A DNA stretch of 64,000 nucleotides from Candidatus Eiseniibacteriota bacterium (lineage in GTDB: Bacteria; Eisenbacteria; RBG-16-71-46; JABDJR01). Positions within the stretch are counted from its first letter, which is position 1, and every line of letters begins with the position of its first letter. Positions 6,294 through 57,950 of the stretch are shown piece after piece. A model generated the notes under the pieces. That model was not told where the DNA came from. It saw only the letters and a list, made by a program, of their open reading frames with translations, and made no database searches. The DNA lies in NCBI GenBank assembly GCA_963783375.1, contig CAWANH010000029.1, positions 608,001 through 672,000 on the forward strand. The letters run 5' to 3'. Both the position numbers and the translations under genes were made by a program.

Positions 6294-7691
6294 TCATACC
6301 ACCCCGGCGTTGACCAGCCCGGGGCGGGCCAGAAGTTCCGGTGGGGGCGGGGCCACCTCCCCTCCCACCTCGATCTCGCCGCGACGAACGAGACGCTCCA
6401 GGGCGGTGACCACCTCGGGGTCGAACTGGTCCCCGGAGCAGCGCCGCATCTCGGCCATGGACTCCTCCAGGGTCAGGGCCTTCCGGTATACCCGGTCCGA
6501 GGTCATGGCGTCGAAGGCGTCGGCGGTCATCACGATGCGGGCGCCCAGGGAGAACTCCTTGGCCGGCAGGTTGTGGTAGCCGCGGCCGTCCAGCCGCTCG
6601 TGGTGGAAGCGGACCAGGGGGGCCACCCGCCGGAACGCGCGCACCTGTTCCAGGATGTCCGCTCCGAGGCCGGCGTGGAGGCAGATCCGCTCCCGCTCCT
6701 CGGGGCTGAGACGGCCCGGCTTGAGGATCAGGTCCCGCTGGGACATCTTGATCTTTCCGATGTCGTGGAGGAGCCCGCCGTACTCGATCCGCTCCACCTC
6801 CCGCTCGGAGAGCCCCAGCTCCCGGGCCAGGACGGCGCTGTACTTGCTCACCCGCTGGGAGTGCTGACGGGTATAGGGGTCGAACTCATCGATGACACTG
6901 GCCAGCACCCCGGCGAAATCGAGAAGATCGCGTTTGGTCTCGATGTAGAGCTTGAAGCTGTACCGGGCCAGGAGCAGGGGGAAGATGAAGAGCACGACCC
7001 CCCAGGTCCCGAGCCCGAAATAAGCCACCGCCACCGCCGCCCCGAAGGGGAGCGAGGCCACCATGTGAAAGATGGTCCAGATGTAGTTGACCTGCCAGAC
7101 CTGCCACGTCTTTCGTCCCTCGGAAAGCGCGATGACCAGGCTCACGATCATGGTGTTCAGCGCGTAGTAGCTCATCCCCATGGCCACGATCGGCAACAGG
7201 ACGTGGGGAAAGCCGAGGGGCTGTCCGGGCACCCCGCCCAGAACCTGGTACACCCACCCCGCCACCATCACCGTGCCCGCGAAGGCGCAGGCGTTGAAGA
7301 TGGCTTTGTGGAGCGGGCGGCGCTGAACGCCGAGCTGCAGGAGCATGGTGGCCGCGAACTCGGCCAGGGCGGTGGGAAGCGGTCCCAGGATGAGGATGCC
7401 CGCGTAGTCCAGGGTCGAGGACACCGTGATGAACCCGCCTCCCGGCAGGTTGACCGGAGCGGCGTCGGTGACCACGATGAGGGCGAACCAGAGGAGAAGG
7501 AGGAACGGAGAGGTTCCGGCCAGGTCGGGCAGGTGCCAACCGAGCAACGTCAACCCCGCGGCCACGATCAGCCCGTAGTAGGCGCGAAACCAGCGGGAAG
7601 CCCCCGTCGGCGCCCCCAGCCGTGAAGGCTGCTGAATGGTGATGCCCTCCACGCTCGCGTCAAGCATACCCCCCCGATCCGCCCCCCCCAT
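6294..7691 (-). CDS. Membrane-sensor (MASE9-like) HD-GYP phosphodiesterase; start uncertain
   Basis: About 7 TM helices followed by HSQRV, LLHDIGK, HHERLDGRGYH, ADAFDAMTSDRVYR. Confidence 0.88.
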   Translation of the reverse strand: MGGADRGGMLDASVEGITIQQPSRLGAPTGASRWFRAYYGLIVAAGLTLLGWHLPDLAGTSPFLLLLWFALIVVTDAAPVNLPGGGFITVSSTLDYAGILILGPLPTALAEFAATMLLQLGVQRRPLHKAIFNACAFAGTVMVAGWVYQVLGGVPGQPLGFPHVLLPIVAMGMSYYALNTMIVSLVIALSEGRKTWQVWQVNYIWTIFHMVASLPFGAAVAVAYFGLGTWGVVLFIFPLLLARYSFKLYIETKRDLLDFAGVLASVIDEFDPYTRQHSQRVSKYSAVLARELGLSEREVERIEYGGLLHDIGKIKMSQRDLILKPGRLSPEERERICLHAGLGADILEQVRAFRRVAPLVRFHHERLDGRGYHNLPAKEFSLGARIVMTADAFDAMTSDRVYRKALTLEESMAEMRRCSGDQFDPEVVTALERLVRRGEIEVGGEVAPPPPELLARPGLVNAGVV

Positions 7692-7763
7692 CGGGGCGCG
7701 GTTCCGGAGGGCTCGGGCTGGTGACGGCAGAAAATGTTCCGGCCGAGCACCCCTACGCCGGGT

Positions 7764-7826
7764 CTACATCCAACCGGATTTTCCCTCGAAAATCACGGAC
7801 ATCAGGTCCAAGAGAAGCTCCCACAT
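7764..7826 (-). CDS. 20-aa small peptide MWELLLDLMSVIFEGKSGWM
   Basis: AAGGAG RBS (7834-7839) 7 nt before ATG, TAG stop, fills the gap between two co-oriented genes. Confidence 0.6.
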   Translation of the reverse strand: MWELLLDLMSVIFEGKSGWM

Positions 7827-7934
7827 GGCTTTGCTCCTTGTTTAGAGGAATCTGAGGTCAGGGTCGCCATCGGTGGTTCGCTTCGCTCGTTCGCTTGCTT
7901 GGCTTGTATACGGCTCTGGGTCGGGTGTTTCTCC

Positions 7935-8696
7935 TCAGGGCAAGGATGTCGGCCGGATCTCGTACTCGACCGGCTCCCGGTAGCGGAGCCGGCCCAGAAT
8001 GCGGTTCAGGGCGTCCAACGTAGCATAGACAACCGACTGCTGCAAATCGTGGCTGACCGGACACGATCCGGTCAACGTCTTCTCCGATCTATCTTTATAG
8101 AATTTGACCGCAACCACCACCACGTCCTCTCCGCCCAGTTCCAGGATCTCCATGTCGGTCAGGGAAAACACGTAGGTCTCGTCCACGAAGCGCTCCACCG
8201 CCTCCAGGGCGGCCTGCCCGATGAGAAGCGGGACCTGCCGGCGGGAGTTGGACCCCGCCGCCTCCCCCACGGTTTCCCGGTCTCCCAGGGACAATTCCAC
8301 CCGGGCACGGCAGGAGGCCTGGTCCAGTCCCACCGTCACCCCCACGAAGCGGAGGCGGATGGCGGCGGGTTCCTCATCGATGCGCAGGGCGGGCAGGGTG
8401 AGCACGTTGGGGAGACGGGGAGGCTCGGCGGCCGGCGGCTCGCCGCCGGTATCGCGCTTCTGAGCCACCGAGATCTTGCGGTAATCCACGTCCATCTGAT
8501 ACTCGGCGCGGAGCGCGGAGCGCACGTCGCGGACGATCTGCTTGGGCGGGCGCTGCCCGTCAGCCAGGATATTGATCTCGGCGATATCCCGGTCGTCTTC
8601 GGTCAGGGAGATCGAGGCCCGCGCGATATTGCGAAGGCTGAGCAGCAACTTCTCCGCCTCGATCACCCACTCGCGCCCGCGTGAAACGTTGTTCAA
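7935..8696 (-). CDS. Conserved hypothetical protein (KQIVRDV..A..DYRKISVAQ N-domain; duplicated beta-beta-beta-alpha C-domain resembling the LeuA regulatory domain)
   Basis: Natural protein composition, RBS, upstream sigma70-like promoter; ends in VVYATLDALNR. Confidence 0.75.
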   Translation of the reverse strand: MNNVSRGREWVIEAEKLLLSLRNIARASISLTEDDRDIAEINILADGQRPPKQIVRDVRSALRAEYQMDVDYRKISVAQKRDTGGEPPAAEPPRLPNVLTLPALRIDEEPAAIRLRFVGVTVGLDQASCRARVELSLGDRETVGEAAGSNSRRQVPLLIGQAALEAVERFVDETYVFSLTDMEILELGGEDVVVVAVKFYKDRSEKTLTGSCPVSHDLQQSVVYATLDALNRILGRLRYREPVEYEIRPTSLP

Positions 8697-8728
8697 GCTA
8701 CCCTCTTTGCTTGAAGATCCACCGACGG

Positions 8729-8757
8729 TTTATATCAGACCCCCCCCGGGGAAGCAA
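8729..8757 (-). promoter_or_regulatory. Sigma70-like promoter TTGCTT-17-TATAAA with extended TG, for the hypothetical/peptide/HD-GYP cassette
   Basis: Read directly from the reverse complement. Confidence 0.55.
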
Positions 8758-8797
8758 GCTGATCCCCCCGCAGGACGGGCGGAAGGCGTTCCGGGAC

Positions 8798-9700
8798 TCA
8801 GAATTGCGCCATCTTCCGGACCTCGTGGAAACGGGCCTCGATCTCCTCCCGGGACGCGGTGGCCAGCCGTCCGAGGCTGAACGCCTCCACCGTGAACGAG
8901 GCGAGCACGGTGCCGTAGATCGCCGCCCGGCGGATCTCCGCCTCGCTCCGGCTGTCTCCGCACCCGGCCAGGTAGCCCAGGAACCCCCCGGCGAAGGTGT
9001 CCCCGGCCCCGGTGGGATCGTAGATCAGCTCGATGGGATACGCGGGAGCGGCGAACGTGAACTCGGGGGTCAGGACCAGGGATCCGTGCTCCCCCTTCTT
9101 CACGATCACCATGTCCGGACCCAGGCCGAGGACCGATCGCGCCGCCTTGATGAGGTTGGGCTCGCCGGTGAGCATCCGCACTTCCTCATCGTTCAGAAGC
9201 ACCACGTTCACCCGGCGGAGGGTGGCCATGAGGTCGTCCCGCGACCGCTCGATCCAGTAGTTCATGGTGTCGAGCACCACCAGGGAGGGGTCGCTCACCT
9301 GGTCCAGGACGCTTCCCTGAAGTCCCGGGTGGATGTTGGCCAGGAAGACGTACTTCGCCGCCCGGTAGGATTCAGGGAGCACCGGCTTGAATTCGGCAAA
9401 TACGTTGAGCTGGGTGTCCAGGGTGGTCCTGGTGTTGAGGTCGTAGCCGTACTCCCCCGCCCACCGGAACGTGCGTCCCGAGGCGGTCTCCAGACCGCCG
9501 ACGTCGATTCCCCGGTTGCGGAAGAATTCCACGTGTTCCTCGGGGAAATCATTTCCTACCACCGCCACCATCGCCACCGGGGCGAAATGACGCGCGGCCA
9601 CCGCGAAGTAGGAGGCGGAGCCCCCCAGGGCGTCCTTGGCCTCCCCGAAGGGGGTCTTCACCGAATCCAGGGCCACCGACCCCACCACCAGTACGCTCAC
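8798..9700 (-). CDS. PfkB-family carbohydrate/nucleoside kinase
   Basis: GSVALD, GGSASY, DPTGAGDTFAGG. Confidence 0.92.
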   Translation of the reverse strand: MSVLVVGSVALDSVKTPFGEAKDALGGSASYFAVAARHFAPVAMVAVVGNDFPEEHVEFFRNRGIDVGGLETASGRTFRWAGEYGYDLNTRTTLDTQLNVFAEFKPVLPESYRAAKYVFLANIHPGLQGSVLDQVSDPSLVVLDTMNYWIERSRDDLMATLRRVNVVLLNDEEVRMLTGEPNLIKAARSVLGLGPDMVIVKKGEHGSLVLTPEFTFAAPAYPIELIYDPTGAGDTFAGGFLGYLAGCGDSRSEAEIRRAAIYGTVLASFTVEAFSLGRLATASREEIEARFHEVRKMAQF

Positions 9701-56372: not shown

Positions 56373-57800
56373 TCAGGCGGCGGGGAGCAGGACCCGGTAG
56401 GCCTCATCGGGATCCCCCGGCGGGGTCGTCTCGAACCGGCCCTGGTGGCGGTCGAGGATGCGGTTGACCACGCCGAGGGCGGCCTCGACGGACTCGGTCT
56501 CGCTCTCCCCCGCCCCACCGGTCACGGCTTCGCGGGGAGTCCGGAGTTCGATGGTCACCGTCTTCCGGCGGTCGTCGACAAAGGTCCGGATCTCCAGGTT
56601 CCGCATGGCCGGACCGGCGCCCGGCCGGTCGGCCATCCGCCCGAAGAGGGTCAGGAGGACCTGCTGGATCTGGCCGGGATCCATCTCCACCGGGGGAAGA
56701 TCGGGGTCCAGCCGGAAGGCGAAGCTCATCCCCCGGAACCGGGTCTGGGGACGGACGAAGTCCACCGTCTTCTCCACCAACTCGTTGAGCCCGCACGCGG
56801 AGCGCTTCACTTCCCGATGGGAGAAGTCCATGAGGCCCCGGGCCAGCTCCGCCATCTGGGTGGAGAGCTGGCGGATGCGCTCCGCCTCGACGGTGAGCAC
56901 GTTGCCGGCGGTGTCGCCCAGGTTCCGGATGAGGAGCTGGGCCCGTCCCGAGACCGCGGCGAGGTAGTTGTTGAGTTCGTGCCCGATCTCCGCCGCCATC
57001 TCGCCCTTGGCGGCCAGCCGCTCGTTCTGGATGAGCTTGGCCTGGGCCGCCTCCAGCTCGAGGTACCGCCTCGAACCGTCGCGCACGAACAGGATGGGCA
57101 TCACGCAGAGCAGGAGCCCGCGGTAGCCCAGGATCTCGTAGCAGAAGACCGCCAGCCCCCCCACCGTGATCATGGCTGCCGAGGTCACGAGCTCGGTCTC
57201 GGTTCCATAGGCCCCCAGCCAGGCGCGGATCGGGTCGACCCCGCGCCGCCTTCCGGTAACCAGGGCGCGCACGCCCTGGCTCACCACCAGATACGCCCCC
57301 CCGGCCACGATGAGCCAGAATATCTGCCGGGGATGGAGCAGCACGAACGCCGCGCTCAATCCCCGCTCGGTGACCGGAATGTGGGTTCCGGTGAGCACCA
57401 GCACCTCCAGCGCGGCCACCGAGGGGACGACGGAGGCGAGCGCCCACCCGAGCGCCTCCCGCGGTTTCTCGCGCCGCCACAGGAGCCCTCCCGCCAGGCA
57501 TGAAAGGGGAACCAGGAGAAGGCTCCAGGGAATCGGGAGCACGGCCACTGCGGCCAGATGGGCGGCGGGGGCCATGGTCAGGACAGTGGTCTGGTCCAGC
57601 GCGGGGTGCCAGAGAGCTTCGGCGGCGAGACAGGCGGCGAACCACGTGGCCAGGACCACCGGGAACGGTCCCAGGGACCGGTTCGAGGCCAGGAACAATC
57701 CCCCCAACAACCCCACCACCAGCAGGGTCATGAGGTGTACGTTTTGAAAGCGTTTGGGCATGGTTGTCCCCGGAGCCGTGCGGTGTCCCCTATCCTCCAC
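56373..57800 (-). CDS. Multi-TM sensor histidine kinase-like protein with degenerate HATPase domain
   Basis: About 7 TM helices, H-box AAEIGHELNN, MDPGQIQQVL; N, G1 and G2 boxes eroded. Confidence 0.8.
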   Translation of the reverse strand: MEDRGHRTAPGTTMPKRFQNVHLMTLLVVGLLGGLFLASNRSLGPFPVVLATWFAACLAAEALWHPALDQTTVLTMAPAAHLAAVAVLPIPWSLLLVPLSCLAGGLLWRREKPREALGWALASVVPSVAALEVLVLTGTHIPVTERGLSAAFVLLHPRQIFWLIVAGGAYLVVSQGVRALVTGRRRGVDPIRAWLGAYGTETELVTSAAMITVGGLAVFCYEILGYRGLLLCVMPILFVRDGSRRYLELEAAQAKLIQNERLAAKGEMAAEIGHELNNYLAAVSGRAQLLIRNLGDTAGNVLTVEAERIRQLSTQMAELARGLMDFSHREVKRSACGLNELVEKTVDFVRPQTRFRGMSFAFRLDPDLPPVEMDPGQIQQVLLTLFGRMADRPGAGPAMRNLEIRTFVDDRRKTVTIELRTPREAVTGGAGESETESVEAALGVVNRILDRHQGRFETTPPGDPDEAYRVLLPAA

Positions 57801-57879
57801 TATTTTCGGCGCTTGCCCGGACGATCTTGAGGGCGGGAAGGCTGCCGGGCCGGTTTCCGGGATCCCGTCGGTAACGGCC

Positions 57880-57950
57880 GAGGCCCCGGCTCGAGGAAAC
57901 CGGGGCCTCTCTCCAAATTGCTTTAAACAGAGACGGTAACTTCTCTGTTT
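57880..57950 (-). terminator. Two inverted repeats downstream of csp
   Basis: aaacagaga/tctctgttt (57925-57950) and gaggccccgg/ccggggcctc (57880-57909). Confidence 0.45.

Follow-up and report, generated by a model that had tools for sequence, protein, structure and literature searches.

In the peptide quorum-sensing systems Agr and ComC/ComD, a short ribosomally made pro-peptide is encoded beside a multi-pass membrane receptor. The RRNPP systems (SHP/Rgg, ComS/ComR and Phr/Rap) use precursors of 16–25 residues in which the active part is C-terminal and often contains Trp, and some of these precursors occur in tandem. ECF S-components have a pocket open to the outside, where they hold small ligands tightly. 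The MASE9-type membrane domain is joined to an HD-GYP domain in Thermotoga TM1467 and Streptomyces venezuelae HdgA, which, like the protein described here, have the catalytic and guanine-binding motifs. According to the main text that describes MASE9, a ligand, left unnamed, should bind inside the membrane (10.1101/2021.11.05.467447), and the hdgA and hdgB mutants of S. venezuelae were reported to have no developmental phenotype, for which the authors suggest missing activating signals (PMC6205966). The main texts of these MASE9-HD-GYP papers (10.1101/2021.11.05.467447; PMC6205966) describe neither a ligand nor a peptide gene nor an RNA element, and the word "peptide" occurs in them 0 times. 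Across the main-text literature searched, no description of the peptide, the RNA or the pairing reported below was found. The peptide-MASE9 system is undescribed in this literature and is treated here as a variant of peptide signalling.

We analyzed a stretch of 64,000 nucleotides (the window) from a Candidatus Eiseniibacteriota bacterium. The gene order at the locus is a pfkB kinase gene, the gene of an unnamed 253-aa protein, the peptide gene, a membrane HD-GYP gene and purM. In the direction of transcription, the features are as follows.

7935–8696, minus strand: conserved unnamed 253-aa protein, with an alpha/beta N-domain (residues 9–80) and a C-domain of predicted LeuA/citramalate-synthase allosteric fold
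7933–7961, minus strand: 5' arm of the long-range closing stem, with CCGGCCGAC at 7948–7956 as its core; overlaps the final codons of the upstream gene
7877–7904, minus strand: AGCG(A/G)AGC-type repeats, AGCGAA at 7890–7895, 7882–7887 and 7877–7882; predicted protein-binding sites
7834–7839, minus strand: Shine-Dalgarno sequence AAGGAG, 7 nt 5' of the ATG; kept in homologous loci
7764–7826, minus strand: peptide gene of 20 codons, coding for an acidic amphipathic helix (residues 1–14) and the conserved tail G-K-S-G-W-M
7729–7757, minus strand: 3' arm of the same long-range stem, with TCGGCCGG at 7739–7746 as its core, then a short U-rich stretch at 7729–7737
6294–7691, minus strand: MASE9-type sensor fused to HD-GYP, likely start at 7667; S-component fold modelled on a homologue

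The minus-strand ORF at 7764–7826 translates to MWELLLDLMSVIFEGKSGWM*. The source genome holds 286 AGGAG-led ORFs of 12–40 codons, 33 of them with Trp within the last four residues. Because such short ORFs are common in this genome, chance is ruled out by conservation and not by the Shine-Dalgarno sequence. No second copy of the peptide was found in the source genome, and neither the window peptide nor 15 homologous peptides had a Pfam or NCBIfam match above cut-off. The preliminary description had proposed a 20-aa gene with AAGGAG-N7-ATG, lying between a conserved hypothetical gene and a membrane HD-GYP gene. The ORF was confirmed as a real gene, kept in homologous loci with selection on its tail, and its neighbors at 7935–8696 and 6294–7691 are of the kinds proposed.

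An HD-GYP match at E 1e-40 was present in 163 of 201 genomes of the phylum, and the 20-codon version of the peptide was present in 6/6 closest relatives (Candidatus Eisenbacteria). Among the 29 best phylum loci, excluding the window and including six close relatives, 28 had the peptide, and the single miss was a contig end. Twenty further phylum loci, hand-picked for family spread, yielded the peptide in 12; those without it were seven loci of family f5 and L093. Taken together, the check that had been suggested, a search for short Trp-tailed ORFs upstream of homologous HD-GYP genes, found a relative of the peptide at the homologous position in 40 of 49 phylum loci. In a metagenome set of 80 loci found via the upstream protein, 13 with <200 nt downstream were set aside, and all 67 with enough sequence had the peptide (60 by script, 7 by eye). 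MASE9 was also found in 85 of 251 genomes of the phylum containing a Clostridia genome (Bacillota). The best 30 Bacillota MASE9 loci included 24 with the upstream gene, and all 24 had a peptide of 21–28 residues; at the 6/30 loci without the upstream gene, no peptide was seen. In Chloroflexota, the upstream gene occurred in 5 of 151 genomes, with a peptide of 31–33 residues after it in 3.

Among eight 20-codon versions, pN/pS was 0.25 overall and 0.08 in the last six codons, and third positions varied in 15 of 19 codons as against 3 of 19 for second positions. The ratios were weaker in 21 more diverged 16-codon versions (0.57 overall, 0.47 in the tail). Judged from these codon patterns, the tail is under purifying selection as amino acids. 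In an alignment of 27 peptides, W30 was invariant and G29 nearly so, and the N-parts varied freely. The tail takes the form G-K/R-x-G-W in Eisenbacteria and AGGA-x-x-x-W in Bacillota and Chloroflexota; the Bacillota peptides end mostly in AGGA-x-aromatic-x-W, and 3 of 24 have no Trp within the last seven residues. Two Eisenbacteria families carry the tail in two or three copies with variable spacers (L072, L079, L080, L109 and metagenome loci), which is the build of a multi-copy pro-peptide. At L186 (1218–1250) the cassette is intact and the peptide consists of nine codons, the tail alone; the contig stops before the next identifiable gene.

As in Agr and ComC/ComD, a short pro-peptide with an amphipathic or hydrophobic leader is thus encoded beside a multi-pass membrane protein. 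In contrast to Agr, however, the window peptide has no Cys or thiolactone and the 27 aligned tails contain no Cys. The cassette also differs from Agr and Com in having no AgrB- or ComAB-type processor and in a candidate receptor of predicted S-component fold that mostly feeds a c-di-GMP enzyme. Unlike RRNPP systems, it includes no TPR receptor or importer: the neighbors are a PfkB kinase, a LeuA-fold protein, the MASE9-HD-GYP protein and PurM, and the partner is a membrane protein. Double-glycine (PCAT) leaders are conserved, end in GG and go with a peptidase-ABC exporter. Many homologues, but not the window peptide, have GG or GA before the tail; no leader-family match and no exporter in the locus were found.

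The N-terminal half of the peptide had been described as hydrophobic, but this is too simple: the helix is amphipathic, its acidic stripe consists of E3/D7/S10/E14, and its moment is 0.43, a value reached by 58 of 10,000 shuffles. N-termini were acidic in 23 of 40 Eisenbacteria peptides. Sec-exported pro-peptides of the Phr-like kind have a basic n-region, a hydrophobic h-region and small residues ahead of the cleavage site. A basic N-terminal charge was found in 24/24 Bacillota and 3/3 Chloroflexota peptides and in 5/40 from Eisenbacteria, and not in the window peptide; the L113 peptide has a polar N-part. Many Eisenbacteria peptides have 16 residues and are therefore too short for a Sec signal.

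The window sensor scored 18.3–20.6 bits against MASE9 (PF20972), under the gathering cut-off of 24.3. A homologue profile that includes 24 Bacillota proteins above this cut-off scored the window protein at E 5e-87, the window protein being itself part of that profile. The motif criteria for HD-GYP given in the main text of 10.1101/2021.11.05.467447 are HD, HHExxDGxGY, RxY[K/R] and KPG. The window protein keeps HDIGK, KPG, HHERLDGRGYH and DAMTSDRVYR, together with an Asp at the third-metal position, and its HD-GYP domain is a predicted c-di-GMP phosphodiesterase. The Pro of GYP is replaced by His (GYH) in family f1 only, whose domains also have RVYR; the other families have GYP. The window protein therefore differs from TM1467 and HdgA in GYH for GYP, and also in falling under the Pfam cut-off.

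The sensor of the homologue L111, which is 39% identical to the window domain, was modelled with a pLDDT of 95 and has nine helices. The model agrees with the MASE9 hallmark of about eight membrane segments with aromatic and Asn/Ser positions; N133 is invariant among the sensors, and N179, W199, N202 and Y224 are conserved. When the L111 model was compared with 48,161 chains, the top 14 were all ECF S-components (Z 10.8–14.9; rmsd 2.8–4.2 Å over 152–188 residues), and the next unrelated rows had Z of about 6. Foldseek gave an S-component match with a probability of 1.0, at an E of only 2.6e-3. The modelled structure thus predicts that MASE9 has the ECF S-component fold, with a six-helix core and an L1 loop over an outward pocket. 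The predicted fold is shared by sensor residues 27–201 and RibU, BioY, FolT, ThiT, PanT and NikM/CbiM. In contrast to these proteins, to which it is 11–20% identical, the sensor shares its chain with signalling domains, its locus encodes neither T nor A components, and the proposed ligand is a peptide tail.

At the position of the Asp that follows the L1 hairpin (D95), 31/33 sensors from Eisenbacteria and 4/24 from Bacillota have an acidic residue, and the tails mostly contain Lys or Arg in Eisenbacteria and mostly lack them in Bacillota. This contrast tracks phylum lines, and the stand-alone MASE9 proteins encoded beside GRAGW tails have Asn at that position.

The output domain downstream of the peptide was found to vary. 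Genome G033 has the cassette and peptide ahead of a gene for a MASE9 histidine kinase (L254; MASE9 E 6e-12), and the HD-GYP locus of this genome is without a peptide. The Chloroflexota loci L331 and L333 likewise have the peptide before MASE9 kinase genes, and at L334 it precedes a MASE9-HD-GYP gene without the upstream gene and under its own promoter-like sequence. After rearrangement the peptide remains with a MASE9 sensor, as in the f14 loci L099, L100, L248 and L250 and also in L254 and L334. The peptide follows the sensor domain whatever the output domain.

In families without the cassette, exported ZU5-type lipoproteins ending in HFS-x-Y-x-x-GRAGW are encoded upstream of MASE9 genes. All 12 homologues of the ZU5 lipoprotein that were retrieved end in GR[AV]GW. 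Among the best 30 ZU5 loci of the phylum, 25 end in G[RK][AS]GW and 28 in [RK][AS]GW, one ends in AGWGG and one has no tail; since the query contained the tail, hits carrying it were favored. A stand-alone MASE9 gene lies directly downstream in 10 of these 30 loci, including the two loci that prompted the search, and 20 of the 30 have no adjacent MASE9 gene. The lipoproteins are 190–500 aa long; HFS was present in 28/28 and a lipobox in 20/28 of those checked. HFS is the motif at which PIDD and Nup98 cleave themselves (PMC3210808). In the lipoproteins it lies some ten residues from the C-terminus, and the putative cleavage there would leave a short tethered peptide. The HFS motif of self-cleaving ZU5 (PIDD, CARD8, NLRP1) and MAIN domains is shared by this lipoprotein format and not by the gene in the window. 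In the covered portion of the MAIN preprint, the C-terminal fragment is without known signalling, and the terms MASE, HD-GYP, ZU5 and lipoprotein do not occur (10.64898/2026.05.12.724683).

The stand-alone MASE9 proteins encoded after GRAGW or GKAGW lipoproteins (L295, L296, L300, L304, L306, L308, L317, L321, L322 and L325) are about 250 aa long and have no output domain; they may serve as decoys or transporters, or may work with an output protein encoded elsewhere. In Chloroflexota, L332 (3–1223) encodes a subtilase with six NW(D/N)S(L/V)-type repeats and a DYWGK end, directly before MASE9-HD-GYP and MASE9-GGDEF genes.

Losses were also compared among the genomes searched. Family f13 is without MASE9 (0/7), cassette (0/12) and ZU5 protein (0/14). 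Family f5 has MASE9-HD-GYP in 41/41 and the cassette in 0/32, but ZU5-GKAGW and MASE9 pairs at four loci. Because kin are not independent, this co-loss pattern amounts to two or three events. Three of the four MASE9-like genes of the source genome have no peptide in front of them, and the peptide is absent from 5 of 9 complete Chloroflexota MASE9 loci (12 hits less two at contig ends and one weak, unrelated hit). At L241 the peptide is followed by purM, with a MASE9 kinase gene about 8 kb away.

Two further MASE9-like genes of the source genome were observed. One lies in the window at 56376–57950 (minus strand), is fused to HisKA without an ATPase-domain match, and has no peptide ahead of it; the gene preceding it is presumably of the cold-shock type. 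The other (L002, G000:C29:1155247-1157568, minus strand) combines a MASE9-like domain, HD-GYP and a further region in a 770-aa frame and has no peptide upstream. From its motifs, we take the further region to be a PP2C-like phosphatase.

The sequence around the peptide gene also folds. In the window the cassette region folds at z = -2.9. Over 67 loci the best anchored stem scored a mean of 32, compared with 20 when the downstream part was shuffled, and 56 of the 67 exceeded all ten shuffles. In a 31-sequence alignment, 84% of cells pair, two-sided changes occur in 11 of 13 pairs, and 0 of 500 shuffles match; slid-alignment controls pair at 25–48%, a contrast somewhat inflated by trimming the alignment at the stem ends and taking the structure from the same sequences. 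The CC/GG core is invariant and is thus read as sequence as well as structure. The repeats lie between the 5' arm and the Shine-Dalgarno sequence; 47/53 loci carry two or more AGCG[AG]A words, and Bacillota add a hairpin with an AGCGG loop. The repeat was not assigned to the CsrA type: the CsrA consensus is ANGGA, and the repeat is AGCGAA or AGCGGA. Rfam gave no match in the window at E up to 5 and, for 18 loci at E up to 1, nothing except one tRNA. A scan of 7500–8900 gave no sigma-70-like promoter and three hits resembling terminators, of which none fell at the end of the cassette. A sequence-only model, with hits at E >1e-4 discarded as mostly Shine-Dalgarno plus signal-peptide starts, detected the cassette, nearly always as a single copy, in 82 of 150 genomes of the phylum, part of which had also served for training. 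The covariation shows a peptide gene enclosed in a conserved RNA cassette, which the preliminary description had missed.

In L334 and L329 the stretch from the peptide to the start of the sensor contains AGCGGAG repeats, which cover the ribosome-binding region of the sensor gene and hint at translational control. The Bacillota cassette often follows a gene (L197, L200, L201, L205, L208, L213 and L216) whose C-terminus we take to resemble the ribosome hibernation factor.

Membrane-active peptides include type I toxins and phenol-soluble modulins. A peptide of this kind, its message silenced by the 5'-3' pairing, would explain a short amphipathic product, a message closed by long-range pairing and a start region that is predicted to be paired in the source genome (unpaired probability 0.03). 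However, the position in the core genome is fixed and the gene occurs in three phyla, in 82/150 genomes and nearly always in one copy. Conservation also resides in the polar tail, the gene is tied to MASE9 genes and no antisense partner was seen, and we give a toxin-like function very little credence.

In attenuator or arrest leaders such as trp and tna, regulation depends on stalling in cis, at a codon no farther than a ribosome footprint from a terminator or antiterminator. A ribosome that stalls on the last Trp codon or on the stop codon could similarly alter the closing stem here and control the downstream sensor gene. The terminal Trp codons (six in L072), the very short version in L186, the conserved stem, the U-rich tail of some loci and the amino-acid-binding allosteric fold of the upstream protein would all suit such a leader. 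Yet the gap between stop codon and 3' arm ranges from 3 to 76 nt (median 19; at most 12 nt in 15 of the 53 loci, among 67, whose core is clear), and at least five U in eight occur in only 19 of the 53 tails, so that the geometry of attenuation or termination is not seen. The 5' arm lies 84–171 nt ahead of the peptide start, three Bacillota peptides are without Trp, and purM is the next gene in L241. Furthermore, the tail that ends the exported 190–500-aa lipoproteins lies outside the membrane and there cannot be a cis leader. We consider a cis leader decidedly unlikely.

The 253-aa upstream protein had no Pfam or NCBIfam match above cut-off. A PDB sequence search with its profile gave nothing below E 0.17, and the profile found nothing in five genomes reached via other loci. 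The family comprises 3,875 clusters at 50% identity and was present in 152 of 201 phylum genomes. The model (pLDDT 86) placed the C-domain in the LeuA/citramalate-synthase fold (Foldseek E 2e-5; Z 9.7, rmsd 2.9 Å over 108 residues). The N-domain resembles many small alpha/beta domains at Z 7–8.5 and no specific kind, and KH-type RNA binding is consequently unsupported. Every cassette-bearing family has the upstream gene. Family f5 lacks both (upstream gene 0/41, cassette 0/32), and f6, f9 and f13 have the gene without cassette or peptide (14 loci). That the gene occurs without the cassette and not the cassette without the gene fits a cassette needing the protein, and not the reverse; from this distribution we infer that the upstream protein is a candidate binder of the RNA cassette.

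The codons for a conserved R-P-T at the C-terminus of the Eisenbacteria upstream protein fall within the 5' stem arm (7945–7956, minus strand). In Bacillota the stem arm lies outside the gene, so the motif probably mirrors an RNA constraint.

The upstream protein might alternatively be the receptor itself, reading the tail in the cytoplasm through its LeuA-type domain, with the sensor gene merely co-transcribed. The peptide and upstream genes adjoin in most loci and are both absent in f5 and in the 6/30 Bacillota MASE9 loci noted above, and known enzymes with the LeuA-type fold use it to bind Leu or Ile where the two subunits of a dimer meet. Against this, the 14 loci of f6, f9 and f13 have no peptide after the upstream gene, a rearranged peptide stays with the sensor (the f14 loci, L254 and L334), and tails on exported lipoproteins would need import. 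Such a role for the upstream protein is very unlikely in our estimate.

The small membrane proteins MgrB and AcrZ act as accessory subunits. By analogy, the intact peptide could reside in the membrane of the producing cell and set the basal activity of MASE9 with no cell-to-cell signal, which would share the MASE9 target with the ligand explanation favored below and differ only in release and range. The amphipathic or single-helix N-part, with Bacillota helices that can span the membrane, suits this role, as does the lack of an exporter or protease in the cassette; the strong Shine-Dalgarno sequence and closed RNA suggest a high ratio of peptide to sensor. The tail is fixed, however, while the helix sequence varies freely, and a helix-helix regulator needs neither triple tails nor the same tail on soluble ZU5 lipoproteins. 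We regard an accessory subunit as unlikely, although it deserves some weight.

Given the conserved tail, its linkage to MASE9 and the modelled pocket, we think it on the whole probable that the tail is the ligand of the MASE9 pocket, reaching it from outside and tuning c-di-GMP. The N-part, which is amphipathic and in Bacillota and Chloroflexota is a helix resembling a signal peptide, would bring the peptide to or across the membrane. General peptidases may then free a tail of 4–6 residues, and the tandem versions would give three tails per chain. The Trp would enter the pocket, and in Eisenbacteria the Lys or Arg of the tail may pair with the lineage-conserved Asp D95. Occupancy of the pocket would be relayed through the last helix to the dimer of HD-GYP domains, most likely switching the phosphodiesterase on and lowering c-di-GMP, a direction that we favor only slightly over its opposite. 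The closing stem may let the peptide message of roughly 230 nt be excised or stabilized, and the upstream protein may bind the AGCG(A/G)AGC repeats and control that message.

The cassette contains no exporter or dedicated protease gene, which counts against the ligand explanation, and simple secretion is at odds with the acidic amphipathic N-terminus of the window peptide and with the nine-codon version. The preliminary description had inferred a peptide sensed by the membrane domain of the HD-GYP protein in a quorum-like cassette. The sensing part gains support, since the peptide travels with MASE9, its tail occurs on exported lipoproteins and the sensor has a predicted ligand-pocket fold. 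The quorum-like part does not, because the cassette lacks an exporter or protease and the local peptide lacks a classical signal sequence.

A broader proposal, to which we assign somewhat below an even chance, is that MASE9 is a vitamin-transporter-derived receptor for Trp tails in many phyla, with control of c-di-GMP or kinases and feedback through the RNA-binding LeuA-fold protein. The tails would arrive by four routes: the micro-peptide of the RNA cassette, the tandem pro-peptide, the self-cleaving ZU5 lipoprotein as a tethered agonist, and the protease tail.

MASE9 is a widespread orphan sensor with HdgA as its one studied member, and the present analysis names a synthesizable candidate ligand, a pocket and a residue to mutate, which makes the question of its ligand directly testable in cultured Bacillota. 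If the ligand explanation is true, it would add a receptor class to bacterial peptide signalling and tie peptide signals directly to c-di-GMP. It would also define a structured RNA of a new type, for which a large and unnamed protein family supplies the candidate binder.
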